Shown piece by piece: positions 17,751 to 32,424 of a stretch of 43,821 nucleotides of DNA. The DNA lies in NCBI GenBank assembly GCA_001929475.1, contig LXFE01001036.1, positions 1 to 43,821 on the forward strand. The letters are read 5' to 3'. Numbering within the stretch: the stretch's first letter is position 1; each line of letters starts with the position of its first letter. The stretch is from Neolecta irregularis DAH-3 (Eukaryota). The position numbers and the translations under genes were made by a program. The notes beneath the pieces were generated by a model. That model was not told where the DNA came from. It worked only from the letters and a program-made list of their open reading frames with translations, and did not search any database.

Positions 17751-18111
17751 ATGACCTTTTCTTTTGGTAACAATTGAAATGAGAGTTCATGGTACTTATT
17801 ATTAGGGCAGAGTACGAATCCAAATCCCCCGGGAGGCTCATTATTCGGTATTTACAAACCCATCGTTCGAACTGATTTTGAAAGGTAATACGAATGCGAA
17901 TATGAATATGAATATGAACACGACTATGAATCCAGGTACTCAACCGTCATTGTTTGGCCAATCTGCGCAGACGGGTGGAAGCACAGGAGGATTTTCATTC
18001 GGAGCAAATACACAAGCACAGTCTCAACAACAACCGGGACTATTCGGAAATTTGAGTCAACCCCAGCAAAATCAGAGCGGGTTCTTGCAGCAGCAGCAGC
18101 AACAGCACCAA

Positions 18112-18143
<32 letters not shown>

Positions 18144-19210
18144 ACAACAACAACAACAAGGTCAGCCTATCCAACAACAGCAATTTGGTCAGTCTACGCA
18201 ACCGACCTTTTCTTGGAGTACGAATCCGCAAATTCAACAACCTACTATAGGCTTTCAAGCGTCGATGTATGAACAACAACCTGTACCGAATTCGCACTAT
18301 GGTATGAATACCCGTCTGTGATAAATATTAAAAAGACAGGACCAGCACAACCTCCCTCCATTGGAGATCAATTATTAAAGATCAAGAATGCTTGGGACAC
18401 ATCACACCCCGACTGCGCGTTTCATTATTACTTTTACAATAAAGTTCCCGTTGAACAAGCCCTTTTATACTCGAAACCACCTCAACAAAGTCAAGAAAAA
18501 TGGGACGAAGCAGTTGCCAATCGGCCTGATAACAGGTATTTGTTTCAATTTGAAATAGGGTAACATGAGGGTAGTGTCGTTCCTGTATTGGCTGTAGGAT
18601 TCAATGATGTTAAAAAGCGGGTGGTATTGCAAGAACAACAAGTCCATGCCTATCGATCTCGAATGCATGAAATCGTAAACAAGTTGACTGAATTACAACA
18701 TAAGCATGATTTGTCGACGGTATCTAAACTGGCCGAAATTAAATCACGGCATTCAAGTCAGGCTCATCGGGCGTTGATACTTGCTTGTCGAGTTCAGGTA
18801 CTGAAGAATCGCGGATATGCATTACAGCCTGAAGAAGAGCAATTACGAATAAAACTTGAGAAATTAGCCAAGGAGGTTTCCGATCCCGAGGTTTTTGGAA
18901 GAATGAACGAGGTTTGGGCAAGAATGGCTGGTGTACGATCTCGCGAGAAGATATTTGAAGAGGAGAAGAAACGTAGTTGGGGGATTACTATTGATTGGGG
19001 AAAAGATGACGTAGAACTCCAAAAAGTGATCAAGGTAAATGCCATCTTTTGATTCAAAACTGGAAAAAGCAGGTTTTAAAAGATCAACAAGCCGGATTGA
19101 CGCATGTTACTAGTATTCTGAAAAACGATTTGGAAGATGTAGAGGTTTTGCTGAAGAGTCTGGAAGAAAAATACAATAAAATCGGGACATCTCCGGACCG
19201 TCGATATTAG
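17751..19210 (+). CDS. NUP57: FG nucleoporin Nup57/Nup54 family (S. pombe Nup44-like), 5 introns
   Basis: FSFG, SLFG and GLFG repeats; HPDCAFHYYFYNKV; KWDEAVANRPDN; PVLAVGFNDV; LKNRGYALQPEEE; C-terminal coiled coil DQQAGL. Confidence 0.88.
18088..18159 (+). repeat. CAG/CAA trinucleotide tract encoding 24 residues (23 Q, 1 H) in Nup57
   Basis: Directly visible in the sequence. Confidence 0.97.
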
Positions 19211-19247
19211 TTTGTATACAGCAGGGATGTTGGTCTCGATACAGTTA

Positions 19248-19473
19248 TTAGTGAGCAAATATAGATGTTGTAGCCAAATTAACAGCGACTGGAGCTAATT
19301 ATGAGCATATTTTACGACGTTCAGATACCCAGTCGAATTAAAGCTGCAACGCCAAGATACCAGACTATATTCTTTTTATTTTCAGATGCAATGTGGTCCA
19401 GTTCTTCCTTGATCTGTTAGATATATGAGTGGAATGAGTAGAGTACATCGCTGAATGACGGTTGATTGAACAT
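19248..19473 (-). CDS. TOM5: Probable mitochondrial import receptor subunit Tom5 (52 aa, 2 introns); absent from ORF track
   Basis: Exons 19473-19447, 19413-19329 and 19294-19248 give MFNQPSFSDIKEELDHIASENKKNIVWYLGVAALIRLAPVAVNLATTSIFAH*: MF start, acidic EE segment and a TM helix with the conserved Pro (cf. human VALLRVTP). Confidence 0.78.
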
Positions 19474-19684
19474 TTTGTGGAAAATGAGACGGGCGGGCGT
19501 GACGGCTTGTGAAGACAAACAAAATATTATTATGAAACGAACGGATTATTCACGACGAGATTTATTTTATTCTAATTTTTGAACGAGGTGGAAAATGCTA
19601 TTAGAAATATCTATTTTAATGTATATCTGAACAACTTGATGGTTGGGGGATGTGTTGCAGCCCGACGTCGGTTGAACATCAGTT

Positions 19685-20923
19685 ATGAGTGACGACGAAA
19701 CTCGGGTACGGGTTTACAATTCTATAACTAACTGATAGCCGTACGTTGATGCCAGGCCGGAGGGACTGGATGAGTCTGATGATGAATTGTCCGAGTTGGA
19801 TGAGGAGCAATTCAAGGGTATTGATGAATCGAATTTGGGCAAGGTAGCACCTACTGTTGTACTCCCTAGTTTCAAAAAGAACAAACAGATTGGGGAGAGG
19901 GAGAAGAAGCCTAAAGGACAGAGGAGACGGCGTGAGGATATTACAGAAGAGGAGATTCAAGAGCAAGCTCCTCTGGATCCGATAGCCGGTTTGGGTATCT
20001 GCGAGTTGACTCTGATGAGCAGCCAAACAAAAAGAGCTGGATGAGCAGTTTAATGTTGCATTAAAGGCGAAAAAGAGGAGGAAGCGGATGAATGAGGATG
20101 TATGTGTGGAAAAAGAGAGGGGCTCACCAGGCAGGATCTGGAGAAATTTGCCGACGACGAGATCAATGCACTGCGGGAAAAGATGCGGGAAGCGGCGTAC
20201 GCGGACCAGACGGCGAACGATGCCAAGCAGGCGGCGACGACCAAGCTCAAGATGCTTCCTGAGGTGCTGGATGTGCTGCAGCGGTATAGCACGGGATGAA
20301 TATATACGCTAACCGCAGGTCTACGTTCTACGAGGCGATGCTTGATCTGAATTTCCTGGAGGCGATGAAGATGTGGCTGGAGCCGCTGCCGGACAAGTCG
20401 CTGCCTGCGTACGATATCCAGCGCGAGCTCTTTTCCGCCCTGTCGCGGCTGCCCATCCGCACCGACCATCTGCGCGAAAGCAAGATCGGACCGCTGGTGC
20501 AGTTTTACGCGCGCAGCAAGAAGGCAGACGAGTCTGTGCGCCGCATGGCAGAGAAGCTAATTTGTGGGCCTTGAATTGGATATTAGCGGGGCTGACCAAG
20601 CAGCGGACTGGTCACGGCCGATCATGCGGCGCAGCAACGATTTCCGGTCGCGGGCGGTGGCGCAGGTGGACTGGAGTGCGCAGGAGCGGGTGGTGGCTGA
20701 GAGTGGCGGTGCACTTGGCGGTGGCGGTGCCTCTCGTGGCGGTGCTTCGCGTGCGGCGGTGCCCCGGGCGAGTACTGCGAGCTACAGCGTGGCGCCGCGG
20801 GCGATTCTGCCGGCGAGCACGAGCAATGCGCAGACGGTGGCGGTCGACCAGCGGCGGCGGCTGAATGCGTTTATGAAGACCAGCAGGCCGCCGAGAAAGG
20901 CGGGCGGCGTGCGGATCAACTAG
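19685..20923 (+). CDS. IWS1: Transcription factor Iws1/Spn1, 5 introns
   Basis: Acidic N-terminus; ATTKLKMLPEV, WLEPLPDKSLPAYDIQ, LRESKIG, DWSRPI, YSVAP. Confidence 0.94.
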
Positions 20924-21114
20924 CAGGCGGGATTCTCGCGATCTGTATAGATATCCTTATAGATCTGTATAGATCTGTATTGGTATCCAGGTTGACCTGA
21001 TGGAATAACTAGCTACTCTGTGTTTCCCTGGAATGATTAGCCACTCGGTATTTCCCCGCACGAGACACGTGCAAGTACAACATCCCGCCAGAACCTGCTC
21101 CTTGTTTTCTACCA

Positions 21115-23386
21115 ATGAGCTCTGAGATGCCCTTTTCCATTCGCCGCCCCTCGTACGAAACCCCGCCCGCGCCCCAGGCGTTTGCTGTTCCCGGATCGCA
21201 GCAGCCGGGATACTCGGCCGTCTACCGCCATGTCCTCGCCCGCGACGGCCTGCTCGCAGTCCTCGACCCCGCAGTCGTCACCGTCTTTGACATGTTTGAG
21301 CATGGCTGCCGCAAAAACCCCAATGCCCATTGTCTCGGCCACAGAGAGTTTGATCCCGTATCTAAATCCTGGGGGCCCTACCTCTGGCAGACCTACGCGC
21401 AGGTCAGAGTGCGGCGCGACAATTTCGGCGCCGGGCTCATAAACATTGCCCGCGAGTTCGCCCGCCCGCCTTCGCCAAAGTTCCATGTGGGCATCTGGGC
21501 ACCCAACCGCCCCGAATGGACGATCGCCGACCAAGCCTGCCAGGCCTGGTCGCTCACCACCGTCGCCCTCTACGACACGCTCGGCCCAGATACCACGCAG
21601 TACATCGTCAACCATGCAGAGCTCGGCGTGCTTGTTACCGTCGTCGAACACATCCCCCAGCTGCTCCAGATGGCACACAAGATGAAATCCCTCAAGGTCA
21701 TCGTTTGCATAGACCCCCTCGACCACGGCGAACTGCCGGGCAAGAGCAAACAGGCTTTGCTTGGCGAATGGGCAAAGAGCAAGGGCGTCCATCTGGTCGA
21801 CTTTGGTCACGGTTGCCTCCTCTCATCCCGTCCACTGATCTCCCAGTCGAGGCTCTGGGACAAGCATCTCCCGTAAAACACAACATTCCTCAACCCCCCG
21901 ACATATCTACTATCAACTACACCAGCGGAACAACAGGGCTTCCAAAAGTATATAATTCCTGTCCTTCAATATTGACTCCAGGGCGTGGTCATCACCCACG
22001 AGAACGCCGTTGCTCCTGCGAGCTCCCTGCAACTCGTTCTCACTCAAAATACTAATGACGTCACCCTGTCCTACCTCCCACTAGCTCATTGCTACGAACG
22101 AAACTGTGAAAATGTAGCACTCTATGCAGGCGCAGCAATCGGATTCTTCCACGGCAATATCCTCGAGGTATCTCGATCTGTTAGTTACATGTCCTAATAG
22201 TAGATCCTCGACGACATTCAGACTCTAAAACCAACAGTCTTACCTTCCGTTCCCCGTCTCCTTTCGCGAATCGGCGCTGCAATTAAAATGGCTACCATCG
22301 AAGCGCCCGGTCTCAGAGGTGCCATTTCCCGCAAAGCCCTCGCTGCAAAACTTGAAAAAATAAATCAAGGCGGGGACAATCATCATATGCTCTGGGACGC
22401 CCTTTGGAGCAGAAAGATTAAAAAAGTTTTAGGTGGAAATATCAGGCTGATAGTTACCGGATCGGCTCCGATTTCTACTGAACTGCTCCAATTCCTTCGA
22501 TGCGCGTTGGCTTGCGATATCGTTGAAGGATACGGACTCACGGAATCAGTTGCTTATGTCCTTGTTGGAAAACCCGGCGATACTAATCCAGGCCACTGTG
22601 GACCTCCAGGTCCCTGCTTGGAAATTCGTTTTTGTGATGTTCCAGACATGGGCTACACCTCGAATGATTTACCTCATCCTCGAGGAGAGCTCTTATTTCG
22701 TGGACATAACAGATTTTTGGGATACTACAAGGATGAAGAAAAGACTCGAGAATCAATCGACCCAGACGGCTGGTTTCATACAGGCGATATCGCTAAAATC
22801 GATCAGCTCGGACGTGTTTATATCATTGATCGCGTAAAAAACTTTTTCAAATTGAGTCAAGGAGAAGTATTGACCCTTTGACATAAACCTATTAACCTCA
22901 GTACATCGCTCCTGAAAAAATCGAAAATATATACGCAGAGTGCAATTTACTTGCACAATTATTCGTTCATGGAGATTCACTTCAATCTTTTCTAGTTGCT
23001 ATCGCAGGTGTCAACCCCGATTCTTTTGCCCCATTTGTTTCAAAATTACTCGGTCAAAATATACCTGCTACAGATCTCGCAGCAATTTCCTCTGCCTGCA
23101 AGGAACGAAAAGTACGACAAGCAGTGTTGAATGAATTGAACAAGATTGCCAAAAAAGCTAAATTGAATGGTTTTGAACAGATTAAGAATATCATGCTTTT
23201 TATTGAGCCGTTTAATATTGACAATGACCTTTTGACGCCAACGTATTATATCCTATTTTTGAACTTTTGTTGATGATTAGATTCAAGGTTAAACGATTCC
23301 AAACTGCTCTATTTTTTCGAAAGGAAATCGATGACATGTACGCGGAATCGCCTACTGATGTTAAACCCTTACTCGGAAAATTGTAG
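21115..23386 (+). CDS. Long-chain acyl-CoA synthetase, FAA2-like, probably peroxisomal (C-terminal GKL), 5 introns
   Basis: YTSGTTGLPK/G, SYLPLAH, GYGLTES, GWFHTGDI, IIDRVKNFFKLSQGE/YIAPEKIE; ends ...LLGKL*. Confidence 0.93.
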
Positions 23387-23585
23387 GACACTTTTTGAAA
23401 TAGTTTGAGAACTAGTTAAATTGATTTATTTATGTCAAGTTGGGTAGTAAAATTTGTCTCTAGTGCTATCTGTTTACGTGTTGGATATCTGGGTAGAGAG
23501 CTGCCCGGGTCAAGTTCCGGAAATTCCCGAGTCAGCCCGCTGCGTTTCACCCACAGCATTCATCTCCCCAACAAGTATCAATCAA

Positions 23586-23820
23586 ATGGCATTCGCCTGG
23601 GCAAAACATTTTACGTACCAACCATTATCTATCTATCGTATTCTAAACATACAGATTTAACCGCTACTCATCCATCTGCGCGAAAGTTGTCCGACAATGT
23701 CTCAAAGACGAACAACGGATCGCTGCTGAAAAAAGATCGGAATCGGCTTTACGAATGTTTAAATGGAGTGGGGGGAAACAAGGAGAAGTCAAAAACCTCG
23801 CAGAGGAAGTCAAGGTGTAA
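23586..23820 (+). CDS. ATP15: Mitochondrial ATP synthase F1 epsilon subunit (64 aa, 1 intron); absent from ORF track
   Basis: Intron 23615-23654 gives MAFAWAKHFTFNRYSSICAKVVRQCLKDEQRIAAEKRSESALRMFKWSGGKQGEVKNLAEEVKV*. Confidence 0.92.
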
Positions 23821-24006
23821 CAGGAAATCTATATCACTGAGTAAATAATAGATTATGCCAATCTTTTTTCGTTCTTTGAATATGAACAGGTTATTCCTGC
23901 TGTGATGGGTCTGCGTCTTAGGGATTCAAGATGAACCCTTGTAGGTTTTTGGGGGGCTTTTTGGGTGATACGAGTGCCATTTTCGTTTTTGTTGTTGGTC
24001 AACCGC

Positions 24007-26724
24007 ATGTCTTGCGAAAGTATCCTCAGCGATAGCGATGGTATTCATTCAAAAGCACCATCTTTTACATATCAGAAACACCCAAATTATTGGCACGCGG
24101 AAGCGTTACACCGACCTTTCAGGACTATACCGCCGAACTCGGTGAAGCTGTTGAATGTGAATGCTGTGAAACTTGCGTCAACGGCATCTGACGAATTGAA
24201 GCACTAGAATTGGGACAATTAGTTATCGACTCTGCTCGGTTTACTTTATCCGATGCTATTGGGTCGATTGAGGTACCTGTATCCTGTGAGCTGCGGAATT
24301 GAATCGCTTAGCTGATGGACAAAAAGATGGATAGTGGGATGATTGACGGGAATACAACGACTATCGATACCTCGATAGGCAGACTTCCCGAGGAAGTTAT
24401 TGGAATCATGGATCAGATTCTTGCGGCTGAAGTGTCCTTGTTATTCTTCCATCGGTTCATGTTCATAGATGTCTTGGCATTACGGACGATCTCTCCAGCA
24501 GACCTTATTCGCAATTCCGTATATCGTAGAGCCGCTTCTTTCATATGAAGGGAACCTTGAAGAAGCTGTGTTTCCTCAAAACCTGAATGCCTATCAGTCG
24601 TCTGTTCAGAGTGGCCTTGTTCACGTTGTTTTGAGGGCTTATGCTCTTGCTACGGTTAAATGCTGTCATCACGTCCTTGAAGAAATTACCCAGGGCCCTT
24701 TATATCAAGTAATTATTATCTCTGACTATCTTCTTCTAAACGGTCAAAGGAAGAGGATATATGCATGTATTGTCAACTGAATCCTCTAGAAAAAACCGAA
24801 AACTCTGAAATTCTTCATCTTTTATCGGATGCTGGCCTTTGGATCTCTGAAAATTCTTCCGAGATACTCTCGAAGTCTTCCCAAGATATGATTATGGCAT
24901 TAACTTCACGGCTCAAATTACGAACAGCTTTTATTTCAACATTAATATATTCCAATCTTGACACTTGCAGAAAATACGTCAATGTCTGTCTCGAACTGCT
25001 TGCTTCAGTCAAAAGTACCATCTGTCTGGGGATATGTCCTGAAGGTGTGATGAGTATGATATTTCAGAGAAACTTGGACACTACAGTACCGCCTAGGCAA
25101 ATCGTGATTTCGACTCCGCAGGAAGGTCTAGAACGACTCGAGAAATTATTACGGCAACAAAAGGCAGTTTTTAAGATGGAAGAGTATACTTCCTCTACAA
25201 ACTTGTTGGTATGTAATAGTTGTACGCAGACACTAATGAGAGAACCGGCTCCATGTCTTTGCAACACAAAAACCTTCAGTACAACCTTATGTCCGGGCAT
25301 TCTTGCAGGTACGATCAATATGAGGAATCTGCTAAGTGGAAAGACACTCTTAAATTATCAAAACATGATATTTGGACGATATTATCATCAAGATGTTGCT
25401 CGAGAATCAATTCTCGAACTATGCGCTCCTCGTTCGGAATTGTTTGATCCATCGAATCTGGTGGCGGAAGCTCCAACTAGTAAAGAATTTAAAATTGCTC
25501 GTATAATGCAAGGGTTCCTAGAAAGAACGAGCCCAGTAAGTTAATATCAAGTCAAATTTCTCATCACCAGATAATTTACGATTATATGAGAGTCTTGTGT
25601 TACAATCGGCCTCGTCAGCGGAGAAACTTGGGCAAGATTTTAGGCGACTGGGAGATTCTGCATGCCGAAGTATTCGTTTGACCTCGCTACTAGTTGATTA
25701 TTCCTAGGCAAGCGCAAGAGACGAAGAATTGAGGCGCTACCTCACGGATGAACCTTCTGTAGATGACGAGGGAAAAGACAATTTCGTTGGTCCACTCTCC
25801 TTCTGGGTCTATTTTCATAAACTTGAAATATTAAACTTAATTATAATGCTTGGTTGGGAACTGGATATATATTTACTTTATGAATGGTCAGCGGCATATC
25901 AGTATCACTTCAGACATAACGACGCTGATCTGTAGTTATCTATTACACATCGTTTCAGTTCAACTTGAACATGTTCAACAGATACAAGACAACATATCTT
26001 ATCAGGTTACTCCTGGAAAATCAACTACAGAAGGTCGAACTGCTAATAGGTCATTGGGATTAGTGAATTATTATATTCGTTATTATAAGATTATCATTTG
26101 CATGGCTCGCGCATACTTTCAGGTTTCCTTCTTTCTATATCAATTCTGAAAATAGCTTTTCGTGTTACTATGCCGTTTGAATGCACTTCCAGTCCCAAGA
26201 AACGATAATAGTTCCCATCAAGCCAGATACAATGTTCGTTTCTCTCTGTTCAGAAATGTCGAAGCTCCTAGTTATGTTCCTTACGAACAATTTCTCGAGT
26301 CCCAAGGTCAGTTAACTCAGGATAACTCTGCACTTCTGAGAGACACATGCTCTGCGCTGATGTTTGCCATTCCCTTGCTCACAGAGTTGGGAGAGATGTC
26401 TATCGAAAATAAACATTTTGTGGGGTGTGAAGCCTTCCATGAAGAGGTAAGCTTCGTGCGAGTATACAACTCAAAGCAGAAAATCAAACAACTCTCCTTC
26501 TCGTGCGTGAGGATGACAGAAAGGATAGGACAACTTGCGCANNNNNNNNNNTGCAGAAAATCAAACAACTCTCCTTCTCGTGCGTGAGGATGACAGAAAG
26601 GATAGGACAACTTGCGCAAGGGCTCAGCTTGAGGAAGATAATTAAGAAAGCCAAGATCAACAATATCATAAAAGAAAACCACCCATGGTTCCCAATTATA
26701 GATATTCCAATAGAGGACGATTGA
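24007..26724 (+). CDS. MAK10: NatC auxiliary subunit Mak10/NAA35, about 12 introns; interrupted by an assembly gap
   Basis: LELGQLV...FTLSDAIGSIE/LMDKKMDSG, MSWHYGRSLQQTLF, EEDI, NRPRQRRNL, GWELDIY, RYNVRF, HPWFPII. Confidence 0.88.
26476..26618. other. 10-N scaffold gap (26542-26551) flanked by an exact 66-bp duplication
   Basis: GCAGAAAATC...CTTGCGCA occurs at 26476-26541 and 26553-26618, typical of unmerged overlapping contig ends. Confidence 0.9.
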
Positions 26725-26815
26725 ATTCAAAGGAATGAACAACACAGAAAATCCATGCATTTATATGTCTATGTATTTCTAAAACTGGGCAGAATGTCCC
26801 AGCATGTACAACGAT

Positions 26816-28302
26816 CTATTTTGGAGAAAGTTCATCGGCGTAAGGTAATAGGTATGTGTCTCCGAGAGCAACCAAGCTTGCTTTATTTTTCAGTAAATTC
26901 GTGGCAGCCTGACACATTAATTAGATAGTAGAAGTAATTGGATTATACCGATTTCACCTGAGCAAATGTAACCTTATCTAATTCAGCGACGACTTCCTGA
27001 GTCTTCACAGAGGTGGATTCGCCAATCAGAGATTGCCCAATCTTTTCTACGGCACTCGTTCGTTCATCAAAAGCGTTGGTGAATTGAAATTTAGTTTGTG
27101 CGATAGCTCGTTTCACATCTACTTCTCGAATGCCCTCGCCCTTGGAAATTAAATGGACAGTCTGAACAACAGCTTTGGCAAGCTTAGTTATAGTGGAGGA
27201 AGGTCCAGCCAACGTGACAGTGAGAAGTCCAGCGTCGGTATGCGTGATATGCTGAGCAAATGCGGAGACTTCATTGCCAAGCTTGCCAGCCAGCTGTGAT
27301 AACAAGGTATTGCCGGCCGACCACTTTATAGATGATTTCCCCCCCAAAAGGTTGGCTAGAATGCCGAGCTCTGGCGATCCAGCAAGAGGCGATGAAGCTC
27401 CAGGGAATGCGAGAATAACAAGGGACTCCTTTGAAGGGCCGTTGATTCGTACGTCGCCGCCGTAATAAGTAGTTCCTGATATTTGTGCAGGGGAACCAGA
27501 TGGGATTTTTGCAAAATGCTGCTGAACCAGATCTTTTAATTCAGTAGAGTCAGCGCCAGTTGCAACAATGCTCAAGTTTCCGGAAATATAGCTCTTGTTT
27601 GCAAAGGCTTTGACATCTTGAAGAAGAACGGGATATTGAGGGTTTGAGTAGAGAGTATTTCCGAGACCCCTTCTGAAAGCCACGTTATGAAGGGCGTCAC
27701 TGGTAATATCAAGCGTACTTAGGGAAGAGTATTGAAGAGCAAGTTGCGGAATGACATCTTCTGTGAATATGTGTCCTGCAATCAGAATGTGCAATTGACG
27801 GGGTATGGGCACGTTCTAGCTTTGTTTTGGTGAGAGTATCTCCCAGTAATTGAACGTAGTAAGGAAGATCTTCCCGGAGAAATTCAGCAGTGAGGATAAT
27901 ACTATCTCGAGTGACGGACGATGACAACTTACCGCCGAGAAGCTCTGATTCTCGGGTTATCCGTAGAGCAGTTCGCTCTGACGTAGACTACATTCCCCTT
28001 AGCGACCAGTTTCGAACCGGAGAATTAAAGATATTTGCGAGGAACGGGATGTCTCGAATGCGACGTACCTTGAACGCAAATCTCTCCAAAATGTGAGCGA
28101 GACCCGGAATAGGCTGGTATCTACTTCCAGCTCGAACAACGACAGACAAGGCAGCGGTTGGTCTTCCGTCATCTCTAGACGCAATCTTGATGCCATTCGT
28201 TTGGCCGACGTGAAATGAAAACGGAGAAATCTGTGCAACAGTCGCCATAGCTCTCGCAAAACTGCAGCGAGGTGCCATACTATAGACTTTTGATCGAAGC
28301 AT
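26816..28302 (-). CDS. QCR2: Cytochrome bc1 core protein 2, 3 introns
   Basis: VVVRAGSRY, GLAHILERFAFK/ST..RTALRITRESELLGG, FLREDLPYYV, LHNVAFRRGLGN, LLGGKSSIKWS, GDTYLLPYADEL. Confidence 0.95.
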
Positions 28303-28470
28303 GACTGTACAAATGGGCTGGGTGGGTCAGGGCTTTGGTGGTTGCTTTCACAAAATATTCAATTTCAACAGTCGACTTTTTGACCAAGACAAAATTCCCT
28401 CTGCAGGTCTGTGCGGTTATTGCAAACTGCCAAACAAGCCAGAAAATCCGATAAAAGTGGTGGGAATGCG

Positions 28471-30474
28471 ATGTCCCAGTCGGAAGTTGAACTGTGTCGA
28501 GTTATCATCGACGAGTTCTTTGGTTCGGTAGCAGCTGTACGTTTTCTCGTGGAATTGCAAGTGTAACAACAACAGGCAATTATAAGGGTTTTACTAGCCA
28601 ATGGAAGACTAGGAGTACCTCAGATAGCTCAGTTGACGGGTTTCTCATATAAATCCATCAAGGAGGCATTGGTTGCTATGATGCAGCACCATCTTATCTT
28701 GTTCGCCGTACTTCACGAAAATGGACGCGATATTTCATACTATGAGGCTGATAGCAGAGAGATTCAATATCTTTTAAGAGCTGGCCGGGAGGTATGGTTG
28801 ACTTCAGTGAAGGTTTCCCAGGAAGTAAGTCATCACTTTGGTGCTTTTATTAAGTATAATCCAGGCCGCTGGTATAGTCAAATATGTCTCTATCAACGGT
28901 CGTGTACGCATCAAGGATATATTAACAGCTTTTGCCGATTCTAAGTCTTCTGCGAAACAGATCAGGTTTTTTAAATCGACATTATCAACTCTCATGACGG
29001 AAGCATTTCTTAGAATAGATTTGCCTTATCACATGAAACCGATTGCAGACCTTCGTAATGAGCTCCGCATTGAAGAGCAGATCAAATTGGGAAATCTGAA
29101 ACTTGCAGAGGCGAAGTTGAAAAAGGAACTAGATGATCTGGTAAATAAGCGATTGAATGAGATGGAATCAGAAACCCGGAATTTGCTCAAGCGGAAAGCG
29201 GAAGATTGGATCGGAAAGTCAAGTAAAAAACGCAAAACTGACGATGATGATGATGATTTGGAATCTCAATTGGATTTGAATGTTTCGTTCTGTCTCTCTA
29301 CTCAATACTAATCTCGAAAGGAAAATTTATTTATTCGTGTCAACCACGATAAATTTAATGTGCTATCCAGAAACATAAGACTCGTTGAGCTAGCAGAAGA
29401 GCGGTTTGGAAAGTCTGTTTCGCAGGTCTATGACCATATGCTAAATATTCTTGCCTCTGGATCAGCTTCTAAGAATCTCCAAGAGATTGGTATCAACTCA
29501 TTATCAATCTCATCTAATTATATGAGAGATGACTGTCACTACAATGGCCCTTTCACGGTCTTTCCCTCGGGATATTGACCTTGGAAGCACCTTTTATGTA
29601 GACCCTGCTGGAAGGAAATCGAAAACGAACTCCAAGTCTTCTTCTAGGATCAAACTTGAACCTACGAGAATAAATGGCGAGAATAACATTGCAGAGAGAG
29701 CCGATGACAAGGACGATGATGAGGAGGACGAAGACGACGAAGAGTACGAAGAATATGATCTCGATCAAGGCAGTGTGACCAATGACAAGTCGAAAGCTTC
29801 TACAAATGATCGCCTGCCGAATCTTGTGAAACACCTTGAAACACTGGCTTCCGACTCTCTCAGATTTCTTCGAAAAAAAGGAAACCGGGGATCTGGCGAA
29901 TGGACTATTGATTGGACAGACTTGAACGAACGTGTGAAGCAGTTCGAGTATGAACGAGTTGTGAAAGAAAAGTATGATTATCTGGGTCTACGGCTTCTGC
30001 GTGCTATCATTAGAAAAGGGAAGGTGGACGAAAAACAGGTATGATAAGTTCTCACTACATTTGGTAATGGAATAGCTTGCAGCTTTTGTTTTACTCAAAC
30101 AACAGGACATTCGAGCTGTTTTAACCTGTCTTCATTCCTTCGGAGCTCTTGAACTCCAAGAAATTCCTCGAACAGCAGATCGTGCTCCTTCCCGGACTTC
30201 CTTCCTGTGGTTTCATCGACCCGGACGAGCGCGAGCTCTGTTTGAGAACGATATACGCAAAGCAATCGCTCGTCATCTCATGCGAATTCAATCAGAGAGA
30301 GTAGAACACTCTTTACTACTACAAAAAACCGAACGTGTGGACGTTCGGCAAAATGAGGATACAAAACTAAGTGATTTTGAAAGACGGGCCTTGGCTAGAA
30401 TTCGAATGAGAGAAGAGAAACTTCTTACGCAAGTGAAGCGGATGGAAGACTTGTTGCTAATTTTTCAAATCTGA
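28471..30474 (+). CDS. RPC82: RNA polymerase III subunit C82 (RPC3), 5 introns
   Basis: MSQSEVELC...FG, LLANGRL, ALVAMMQHHL, GLRLLRAIIRKGKVDEKQ, LELQEIPRTADRAPSRTSFLW. Confidence 0.92.
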
Positions 30475-30684
30475 GACCCCGCATGGGGTATTTGTACTAT
30501 TATCGGGTATATACAAGCGGCGCATAGCGATTTTTCATTCAGATGTTCATACAACGTTTGTGGAGTAATTATATGATTGTCTATCGACGCCCTCGATAAA
30601 CCGCGACTCCCACTCAATCTTGACTACCCACCTTTCTCGCCAAATGATCTTTGGGCCACAGATTCCCGGTATCAGCTATCACGA

Positions 30685-32424
30685 ATGAATCCGAGCGAAA
30701 TATATCCTGAAGATTCGTTGAAATGTACCACACGCTTGACCTTGGGACTGTTTCCATTGTATGAAAGTATTCGAGAAAATCAAATAGACCAAACACACCA
30801 CAACGAAGCACCAGCGTTGCCTTTAAGCAACAGCAGCAGGAAGCGAAAGCGTAAAGCTAGATCCATATCCACAGGATCCCACACGACAAAAAGACCAAAG
30901 ATTCCCGTCGAAAGTAATCGGTCATCACTTCCTACCCCACCCATTGATACAATTGCCATTCCCCTGATAGCTTCTCGATATCGAAGAATAGCAGAGGCTG
31001 GTCAAGGCGCTTTTTCTGTTACGATATTAGCACAAGATACATTTCTCCCCGAGCGACCGATTGTTGCCATCAAGAAGATGAAAGACGGATTCAATGCAAT
31101 CGGTCAGCGCGTACACTCGGAAATCATAATTTATATTAATAAAAGGAATATAATGCTTTGCGGCAATTGCACAACCTTCATATTCCCCGATACGCCATTA
31201 TACCTATTGTCCGCCCAATATCTTCTTTCCACGAAAATGGATCATTTCATCTGGTACTCGAGAGGCTCGATCCTACGCCCCTGGTGTTGCCCAGGTGTCC
31301 TCATAAAGTATTCGATGAGAATGGAAAATGTAGAGCGCGCCACTCAAATGTTGCTTGTCCAGTCCGGCATAAAGCTTTGAGGCTAATCGCGACTCAAATC
31401 CTTGATGCAGTCGCCTTTTTGCATGACTTTACCGGAAATATGCATGCCGATATCAAACCGGAAAATGTCATGTTCACTGAGCGAGGTATTTCGAAGGCGC
31501 AAAACTTCCTTTGATTCGTACCAGATGAACTTGAACCATACCAGCTTCGCCTAATCGATCTGAGCAATGTCATTCCTATTCATGAACGTGAAATTTACTT
31601 TGATGATTTCGAATTACAGAGTGCTCAATATAGGGCTCCAGAAGTATGTATCTTATTACTTGCACTGATCAAAGGTCATGGTCGGACTTCCGTTTAATGA
31701 GAAAATTGATATATTTTCAATTGGCCTGATTCTCCTGGAATTACTCATATCCGATGAATTAAATCATTCCACTCTTGTGGGGTCCCATTGTGCATCCAGA
31801 TCAGCCTTCGTCGAAACGATATGCAGTCTGATTGGGCCATTCCCCGAATTTTATCAGGAAGGAAAATTCTGGAGGGTAGAGTACGCACATTTAAAATCCA
31901 CATACAGTCTCAAGTCCTGTCTCGATGATTCCCAGGACATCTCTTTGAATGAATTCATTCATCAGTTGCTGAAACTCGATCCTTCGCGAAGGTTTTCGGC
32001 CATGGAGGCATTGGAGCATGATTGGATCGTCGGAGGTTCAGGTTATCGGTCGATTGTGGGTATCAAGAGCTGGAGTGAAAGACATAGCAAAACGAATATC
32101 GCAACGGAACATTTCGGCAGCGAATCTCCACTCTTGGACAAGACTGTTCCTTGCAAACCCCAACACGTGCAACAGTCATCATGCAATGACTCTTCGCTAT
32201 CATGCGCAGTCGAAGAAATTCAGATCCCATTTGGAAGGACCCGAAATACGAATGGCACTGACAAAGTTGATGAGCAGAATGAAAATGACAGACAAGATCT
32301 GGGATGTTCAACTCCGATATCATGTCAACATAGTCCTCTTGAGCCGTTATTGGTAAGACTAACTTTTCAAGTATGACTGATCTTTAAGGCTGAAGGAGAT
32401 AACGATGAGGTGATATTTGTTTAA
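30685..32424 (+). CDS. Divergent CMGC (DYRK-like) Ser/Thr kinase, 4 introns; start codon uncertain
   Basis: GQGAFS, VAIKK, HADIKPEN, IDLSN (at the DFG position), QSAQYRAPE/V, KIDIFSIG, LKLDPSRRFSAMEALEHDW. The frame is open from 30577; the first in-frame ATG is 30685. Confidence 0.82.

Follow-up and report, generated by a model that had tools for sequence, protein, structure and literature searches.

What process can raise the guanine-plus-cytosine (GC) content of a short tract of coding DNA and, at the centre of the tract, reverse its strand preference from G to C? This question is raised by a locus of the fungus Neolecta irregularis DAH-3, at which an IWS1-type gene and an acyl-CoA synthetase gene (FAA), separated by a spacer of 191 bp, carry a GC-rich island between them. 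The analysed stretch, referred to below as the window, is the whole 43,821-bp contig LXFE01001036.1 of assembly GCA_001929475.1. An initial annotation of this contig had traced both the island and the flip in strand skew to a local, bidirectional and long-lived source, such as a fixed replication origin or a meiotic hotspot of double-strand breaks (DSBs). Our analysis demonstrated that the GC island is both robust and, as a local feature, exceptional, and that the skew switch is real and is largely accounted for by the known gene-end pattern of fungi together with ordinary codon preference. As the best reading of the island we propose GC-biased gene conversion (gBGC) at a stable, long-lived meiotic hotspot in the FAA promoter, with a probability of about one half; in this reading we infer recombination from base composition. 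Statements about the literature refer to the parts of each cited paper that were available.

A GC-rich island centred on the IWS1-FAA spacer

The island and the gene models around the spacer, which were assembled by hand, have the following coordinates.

20120-21860, unstranded: GC island of ~1.7 kb, delimited by a box fit to third-codon and intron-core sites.
19685-20923, plus strand: IWS1-type gene with six exons on the plus strand (19685-19705, 19739-19988, 20023-20099, 20135-20283, 20319-20563 and 20604-20923); the island's G-rich left arm corresponds to its 3' two-thirds, from ~20120.
20924-21114: IWS1-FAA spacer of 191 bp, in which the 3' flank of IWS1 meets the FAA promoter and which contains the GC dip and the skew switch.
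21115-23386, plus strand: FAA gene, acyl-CoA synthetase (FAA2-like), with six exons on the plus strand (21115-21811, 21847-21947, 21982-22167, 22204-22866, 22902-23242 and 23281-23386); its first ~0.75 kb forms the C-rich right arm.

In 200-nt windows GC was at least 0.57 throughout 20100-21899, apart from a dip of 0.50-0.555 at 20900-21199, and peaked at 0.725 at 20600-20799. Outside the region, in 500-nt windows starting beyond 19500-22500, the mean was 0.432 (standard deviation 0.029) and the maximum 0.504, compared to a maximum of 0.66 inside, so that the sharp rise described in the initial annotation was confirmed. The base counts given there were also exact (G31, C12 and a GC of 43/60 at 20641-20700; GC 39/60 at 21181-21240; GC 25/60 at 22981-23040; C27 and G14 at 21541-21600). 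The window contains this single island of its kind.

Extent and shape were fitted to the 1317 third-codon and intron-core sites of IWS1 and FAA. The box model gave a GC of 0.74 inside and 0.40 outside the island, the left edge being supported within 20060-20150 and the right edge within 21750-21860, while a symmetric sigmoid was centred at 21000 with a half-width of 940 nt. The log likelihood was -906.7 under a constant and rose to -831.7 with the box, -829.1 with the sigmoid and -834.9 with an exponential decay. Overall, the half-width amounts to ~870-940 nt and the centre, at 20990-21000, falls inside the spacer, whose own GC of 0.47 (G40, C49, A45, T57) lies between flanks of 0.66 and 0.63. 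To the right of 21860, GC at third codon positions (GC3) steps down to 0.47-0.67 as far as ~22130, to ~0.4 as far as ~22850, and then to ~0.3. The four introns within the island had a GC of 0.46-0.60 and the six outside one of 0.24-0.50, which indicates that the enrichment is not due to selection at the level of translation. As would be expected of a gBGC peak at a hotspot, the rise thus involves neutral sites, both synonymous and intronic, and has a promoter-bearing intergenic centre with a half-width (870-940 nt) inside the expected reach of ~0.5-2 kb.

The pressure towards GC has also reached the protein level, more weakly than synonymous sites and introns. GC at second codon positions was 0.85 in 20702-20821 of IWS1; the C-terminal tail of IWS1 is rich in Gly, Ala, Arg and Val, and the N-terminus of FAA is rich in Pro. 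In the part of FAA encoded by the island the fraction of GARP residues (one-letter code) was 0.305, exceeding that of 56 of 57 orthologues (57 of the 58 proteins P0003-P0060, P0021 being excluded for its length), and the remaining protein was ordinary or low. When the N-terminal part was compared with the C-terminal part, the GARP:FYMINK ratio was 1.88 relative to an orthologue mean of 1.37, a value reached by two of the 57 orthologues.

Two other sources of high GC were considered and rejected. The ratio of observed to expected CpG was 1.07 in the island and 0.94 in the rest of the window, so that the bulk is undepleted and the island is not a vertebrate-type CpG island escaping methylation. 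Expansion of tandem repeats was likewise discarded, since the repeats span just 61, 41 and 56 nt:

20703-20763, plus strand: 3.7 copies of a 15-nt unit; the repeat encodes the C-terminal tail of IWS1, which is rich in Gly, Ala and Arg.
20940-20980, plus strand: GATCTGTATA, 3.9 copies, in the IWS1 3' flank (Tandem Repeats Finder).
21001-21056, plus strand: direct repeat of 28 nt, present twice and situated exactly at the island centre (82% matches and a score of 77 in Tandem Repeats Finder).

The assembly is contiguous through the island. From run X1, a single DNA contig of 17,093 nt with a word depth of 408.5 spans 18626-31000 with zero differing letters outside a gap of N, at which it skips 77 nt (26475-26551), and both island edges are crossed by spliced contigs of run X2 that continue through both arms. 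Word depth is uniform over the island and both reading frames run on seamlessly. A chimeric join or foreign insert, which the initial annotation had named as a finding that would overturn its proposal, was therefore ruled out. Since run X1 is possibly the source of the assembly and X1 and X2 come from one study, this support is not independent; the two runs showed no polymorphism within the island. Among the 15 joints listed out of 59, spliced X2 contigs also supported, as GT..AG skips, the introns at 19989-20022, 20100-20134, 20284-20318, 20564-20603 and 21812-21846, of which four belong to IWS1 and the last is intron 1 of FAA. Introns of the two genes measure 33-40 nt; across the window introns are very short (31-57 nt in the 14 checked) and their donor sites are variable. 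The TFIIS helical-bundle domain (Pfam PF08711) was found in IWS1 exon 5 (E = 1.9e-10), and FAA matched AMP-binding domains (Pfam PF00501) and has homologues named long- or medium-chain acyl-CoA synthetases.

The published N. irregularis assembly, derived from DNA and RNA of field-collected fruiting bodies, comprises 14.5 Mb with an N50 of 16 kb and 44% GC (PMC5309816), and the available main text of that paper gives this GC content and makes no mention of GC-rich islands (PMC5309816). A homologue search with FAA exon 1 returned 235 proteins with E <= 0.001 among 2129 candidates, of which the best 120 were listed; among the matches listed, the closest non-identical one was a Saitoella protein with 50% identity. 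A metagenome scan for relatives of the same exon gave 598 pattern matches, 0 of which were confirmed. The public protein identical to this locus (21115-26149; P0002, 1398 aa) carries AMP-binding and Mak10-type domains. It runs past the FAA stop at 23386, and orthologues measure ~670-710 aa, so that the deposited model appears to fuse two genes.

Several features elsewhere on the contig may be recorded here. The gene upstream of IWS1 is Nup54 by Pfam; the FG-rich N-terminal part of its product is encoded with a long CAG/CAA (poly-Gln) tract at 18080-18168, where X1 contigs are cut as at a repeat. Between Nup54 and IWS1, a spliced transcript of the minus strand (19076-19560, with CT..AC joints at 19295-19328 and 19408-19446) overlaps the 3' end of Nup54 and diverges from IWS1; it contains no convincing long open reading frame (ORF) and may represent a small protein gene or a non-coding RNA. 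The sole run of N in the window (10 N at 26542-26551) is bridged by the X1 contig, so that the gap seems closable, and its flanking bases may be duplicated. At 29710-29752, in a GAG/GAC-rich stretch encoding an acidic repeat, both runs contained loose ends and an alternative joint that adds 14 letters, which suggests a difference in repeat length or a collapsed assembly repeat.

The G-to-C switch in strand skew

At fourfold degenerate sites, which served as the check at neutral positions, the flip in skew was confirmed: IWS1 codons 121-354 contain G83, C26, A7 and T17, and FAA codons 1-240 contain G26, C81, A13 and T13 (83:26 versus 26:81 for G:C; Fisher's exact test, p = 1.8e-14). The cumulative difference between G and C reached its maximum at 21003, inside the spacer, of which the FAA-promoter side is C-rich. 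Since the centre of the GC plateau (20990-21000) lies in the same spacer, the common centre that had been placed near 20,950-21,100 was located correctly. The left-minus-right difference in skew (D) peaked window-wide at 20951-21051, with values of 0.43, 0.41 and 0.39 at half-widths of 500, 1000 and 2000 nt, respectively, and with z-scores relative to the rest of the window of 3.3, 4.6 and 5.8, which derive from overlapping windows and hence from few independent samples. Elsewhere in the window D did not exceed 0.185 at the 2-kb half-width, and on the right side the skew over all sites was back near zero by ~22250-22500. The earlier statement of a fading effect within each gene is correct with respect to GC and incorrect with respect to relative skew. 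In IWS1, G exceeds C at third positions from the first codons onwards (13:6 at fourfold sites of the 5' part), and in FAA the excess of C over G at fourfold sites continues to ~codon 600 (G15 and C55 in codons 241-600).

That IWS1 and FAA are both located on the plus strand is correct; the argument that had been built on it, namely that neither transcription nor codon preference can explain the flip, did not hold on either count. McLean & Tirosh described a bias shared by most unicellular fungi, in which C prevails on the coding strand at 5' ends and promoters, and G at 3' ends and in 3' untranslated regions (UTRs) (PMC3315797); this bias is also found at fourfold sites and in amino-acid usage (PMC3315797). 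Two co-oriented neighbours following this rule yield a G-to-C switch in the spacer between them, and tandem junctions are thus precisely where the published pattern places such a switch (PMC3315797). The same polarity was found at the present locus, including fourfold sites (G83:C26 in the 3' part of IWS1, G26:C81 in the 5' part of FAA). Over the contig, 5' skew was lower than 3' skew in 8 of 11 plus-strand genes and in 1 of 3 minus-strand genes. N. irregularis reportedly lay outside the survey of McLean & Tirosh, its genome having appeared in 2017.

With regard to codon preference, the C bias of FAA extends past the island and is shared by other genes. The HSP70-like gene has a G:C of 29:78 at fourfold sites, from which the 26:81 of FAA is not different (p = 0.75). 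On the minus strand, and read in coding sense, the GOGAT-like gene gave 33:90, 40:62, 8:27 and 12:25, and the ORF at 26946-27815 gave 21:46. Over the ORFs of the window the coding-sense skew at fourfold sites ranged from -0.54 to +0.50. A comparison of purines with pyrimidines at fourfold sites inside and outside the island gave 90:43 versus 20:19 in IWS1 (p = 0.087) and 39:94 versus 65:115 in FAA (p = 0.23), a modest shift that is consistent with GC enrichment driven by transitions and superimposed on each gene's own third-position bias. Pyrimidine-ending codons are strongly favoured at fourfold sites in the HSP70-like and GOGAT-like genes and in the ORF at 26946-27815 on the minus strand, and not in the other genes.

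A neutral domain of positive skew reaching leftwards to 18.5 kb was also considered and rejected, as the 3' part of Nup54 has a G:C of 11:11 at fourfold sites. Together with the 13:6 of the IWS1 5' part, this indicates that the all-site skew between 18.5 and 20.1 kb mostly reflects amino-acid composition.

Proposed gene conversion at a hotspot and its alternatives

In the reading that we favour, a local GC-enriching process would reach ~0.9 kb in both directions from the 191-bp spacer. Breaks would form repeatedly in the FAA promoter, which is presumed to be nucleosome-poor, and would make it a long-lived hotspot, at which conversion would raise the GC of introns and synonymous positions and, to a lesser degree, leave its mark on the encoded amino acids. 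The skew would be composed of the gene-end skew (G at the 3' end, C at the 5' end and promoter), the preference of FAA for C-ending codons and a high GC3 that makes both visible; mutagenesis of the resected 3' single strand, which has the same polarity, may have added to it. The half-width of ~870-940 nt matches the scales of meiotic resection and of conversion tracts, resection in Saccharomyces cerevisiae averaging 822 nt and ranging over ~200-2000 nt (10.1101/067199). Of the local, bidirectional and long-lived source that had been proposed, the centring, the scale and the amino-acid footprint are thus upheld, whereas the key argument from co-orientation is lost.

Two motifs are situated near the centre of the island:

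21054-21061, plus strand: CCCCGCAC, identical to the Schizosaccharomyces pombe Oligo-C (Rst2) hotspot-activating motif, ~55 nt from the island centre.
21066-21071, unstranded: CACGTG palindrome, adjoining the Oligo-C motif; one of 5 such sites in the window.

Oligo-C, which is bound by Rst2, is a hotspot-activating motif in S. pombe (PMC6827382, Table 1). Here CCCCGCAC occurs once in the window, compared to an expected 0.58 copies and to at least one copy in 47 of 100 shuffles, and as a post-hoc match it provides a lead only. Its reverse complement contains GCGGGG, which we take to be of the CreA/Mig1 type, and the palindrome is presumably an E-box. A more far-reaching version of the favoured reading, according to which the locus might be the fossil of a long-lived DSB hotspot anchored by such a motif and the G-to-C switch the imprint of mutagenesis on the resected 3' strand, appears rather unlikely to us.

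Several observations weigh against gene conversion at a hotspot in the FAA promoter. The island is the only one within 43.8 kb, and its GC3 climbs from a base of 0.40 to 0.74-0.8, far more than in the gBGC effect reported for S. cerevisiae, from 0.33 to 0.48 (PMC3020949). The left edge is rather sharp, GC3 rising from 0.40 to 0.93 between ~20024 and ~20194, which a single tract would produce as well. Moreover, the excess of G over C at fourfold sites of IWS1 is paralleled solely by small ORFs (21:7, 24:9 and 6:2), and a close relative by which substitutions could be polarised was not found, the closest non-identical homologue among those listed being 50% identical and the metagenome scan having given no confirmed match. 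The switch is also unusually strong within the window. D was 0.39 at this junction (500 nt), 2-3 times that of the other 15 approximate junctions, for which the mean was 0.025 (standard deviation 0.123), D being positive at 9 of all 16. When 3' and 5' gene ends were paired at random, 2 of 157 pairs attained the observed D at 500 nt, while 0 of 157 did so at 800 nt, and the generic gene-end pattern alone therefore under-predicts the switch. These junction tests used 14 hand-picked gene spans and 16 junctions with approximate ends, and given that the initial annotation had picked the most striking junction, the strength of the switch relative to the others is suggestive, not decisive.

The alternative that survives best, although we consider it clearly less probable, is that a process linked to transcription acted alone. 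The two genes, 191 bp apart, would then display an extreme form of gene-end bias or a selected terminator/promoter device, and an R-loop-prone, G-rich 3' end of IWS1 next to a C-rich 5' end of FAA would generate skew and GC without recombination. Such an origin is in agreement with the sign of the skew on both sides, which is that of the published fungal pattern at fourfold sites, promoters and 3' UTRs (PMC3315797), with the amino-acid usage (the Gly/Ala/Arg/Val-rich IWS1 tail and the Pro-rich FAA N-terminus), with the position of the switch exactly at the gene boundary and with the lower 5' than 3' coding-strand skew of 8 of the 11 plus-strand genes. However, it accounts poorly for the GC island itself. 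[quoted passage not shown] None of the other 15 junctions is raised in GC, their flanks ranging from 0.37 to 0.49, and the GC plateau is symmetric about the spacer rather than tied to the transcript ends of one gene. In addition, the skew pattern is present in only 1 of 3 minus-strand genes, and D is positive at only 9 of the 16 junctions.

It is improbable, in our view, that the island goes back to one or a few historical events and not to a standing hotspot, be it a GC-rich tract that was introgressed from, or converted against, a diverged and GC-richer Neolecta lineage, or one long repair synthesis. The sharp left boundary (support 20060-20150), the uniqueness of the island in 43.8 kb and a log likelihood of the box (-831.7) that nearly equals those of the graded fits (sigmoid -829.1, exponential -834.9) would all be compatible with such an event. 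On the other hand, a random tract would not be expected to have its centre within ~30 nt of the spacer midpoint, and simple import would not be expected to produce the opposite choice of G and C in the two arms. The graded right tail, the seamless frames and uniform word depth, and an amino-acid footprint that implies long exposure also speak for a process other than a single event.

Even less probable is a chance pairing of a gene with G-ending codons and a gene with C-ending codons, unrelated to the cause of the GC island. The wide range of coding-sense skew at fourfold sites among the ORFs of the window (-0.54 to +0.50), the gene-wide bias of FAA as far as ~codon 600 and the presence of the IWS1 bias from its 5' end (13:6) fit this possibility, as do the purine:pyrimidine counts, which show no significant difference between the parts inside and outside the island (p = 0.087 for IWS1, 0.23 for FAA), and the selection of the most striking of ~16 junctions for annotation. 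Contrary to it, random pairs attained the observed D in only 2 of 157 cases (500 nt) and 0 of 157 cases (800 nt), both genes move further towards their own bias inside the island, and the window's sole GC island is also the site of its largest switch.

Least of all do we expect a fixed, efficient replication origin in the spacer, at which the skew switch would arise from asymmetric mutation of leading and lagging strands. The fungal origins known so far are AT-rich, which counts against this proposal of the initial annotation, and replication asymmetry would leave the 1.7-kb rise in GC unexplained. The polarity does agree, since the leading strand of S. cerevisiae, Kluyveromyces lactis and Candida albicans is reported to be C- and A-rich, which places high skew on the left of an origin and low skew on its right, as observed here (PMC3459929), and the fourfold sites on the left side, with T17 exceeding A7, agree as well. 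However, the jumps at yeast origins are small (~9%) and relax over ~20 kb (PMC3459929), whereas the switch described here amounts to ~40% (D ~0.39-0.43) and fades within ~2 kb at all sites; the same argument from amplitude and range was used by the same author against replication as the cause of the jumps at C. albicans centromeres (PMC3459929). In bacteria and humans, moreover, the polarity at origins is reversed, from negative to positive (PMC2817419).

The locus may have implications beyond its two genes. As far as is known, Neolecta can neither be grown nor crossed in the laboratory, and its recombination landscape can therefore be inferred from sequence alone. Should sharp promoter-centred islands of GC3 recur genome-wide, they would point to stable hotspots in a lineage akin to fission yeast and would reveal how strongly coding sequence and protein composition can be reshaped by biased conversion. 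Viewed on the plus strand, the rule of C at 5' ends and G at 3' ends is equivalent to a change from G to C in every intergenic region, independently of gene orientation, and the same geometry would result from a bidirectional source in nucleosome-poor intergenic regions. If the switch were indeed an imprint of resection, the gene-end skews of fungi would be recombinational and not transcriptional in origin, and hotspots, including those of uncultured fungi, could be read from one genome. Convergent junctions, which are without promoters, would separate the transcriptional from the recombinational origin when compared at neutral sites with tandem and divergent ones. Our literature search, judged by title or abstract, found no study linking the gene-end skew of fungi to recombination.

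Comparison with known systems

Similar compositional footprints have been described in other organisms. In Cryptococcus neoformans, GC-rich intergenic hotspots flank MAT and also occur inside it, and conversion was measured there with tracts of 560-2100 bp (PMC3390403; PMC1630710). As in Neolecta, a fungal intergenic GC peak is located between two genes, and its span is ~2-2.5 kb (PMC3390403). Unlike the present case, which is known from base composition, conversion was measured in Cryptococcus in crosses and populations; the Cryptococcus peak lies in intergenic DNA, whereas in Neolecta the GC is carried by the coding DNA on either side of a spacer that itself dips. Strand skew is not mentioned in the available parts of the Cryptococcus study (PMC3390403). 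In S. cerevisiae, a model together with data indicated that GC3 is raised at the gene ends nearest to DSB sites and that amino acids are affected (PMC3020949). The Neolecta locus resembles this situation in that GC3 is highest at the gene ends facing the spacer and decays inwards, with a weaker effect at first and second codon positions (PMC3020949). In yeast, however, GC3 rises from 0.33 to at most 0.48 as an average over genes, while a rise from 0.40 to 0.74-0.8 with a plateau-like shape was found here at one locus.

With regard to skew, the G-biased 3' end of IWS1 and the C-biased promoter and 5' end of FAA, including fourfold sites and amino acids, correspond to the pattern of McLean & Tirosh (PMC3315797), which in contrast is a genome average without a GC island; the switch at the present locus is 2-3 times that of other junctions in the window and coincides with a GC island. 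A local flip in skew together with raised GC and a central drop in GC is known from the centromeres of C. albicans, where the flip is large and extends over a few kb, and one mutational mechanism was proposed for both skew and GC (PMC2924309; PMC3459929). The polarity of the centromeric flip, from negative to positive, is opposite to that observed here (PMC2924309). This opposite polarity and the location in a 191-bp spacer between two transcribed genes led us to reject a centromere as an explanation of the Neolecta locus. Centromeres of C. albicans are found in long gene-free regions, unlike this short spacer between two expressed genes.

Finally, at human meiotic DSB hotspots, C>N and A>N mutations were found on the 3' strand of resected ends in ~2 kb of flanking DNA (Hinch et al. 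2023; PMC7615360). Because the resected 3' strand is the forward strand to the left of a break, such mutations would leave an excess of G over C on the left and of C over G on the right, as seen here (PMC7615360). The human data are, however, mutation spectra at PRDM9 hotspots, while the Neolecta locus presents a standing compositional skew in a fungus (PMC7615360). Taken together, these comparisons make the IWS1-FAA locus a further example of compositional footprints whose kinds are known, a single locus that known processes explain adequately.

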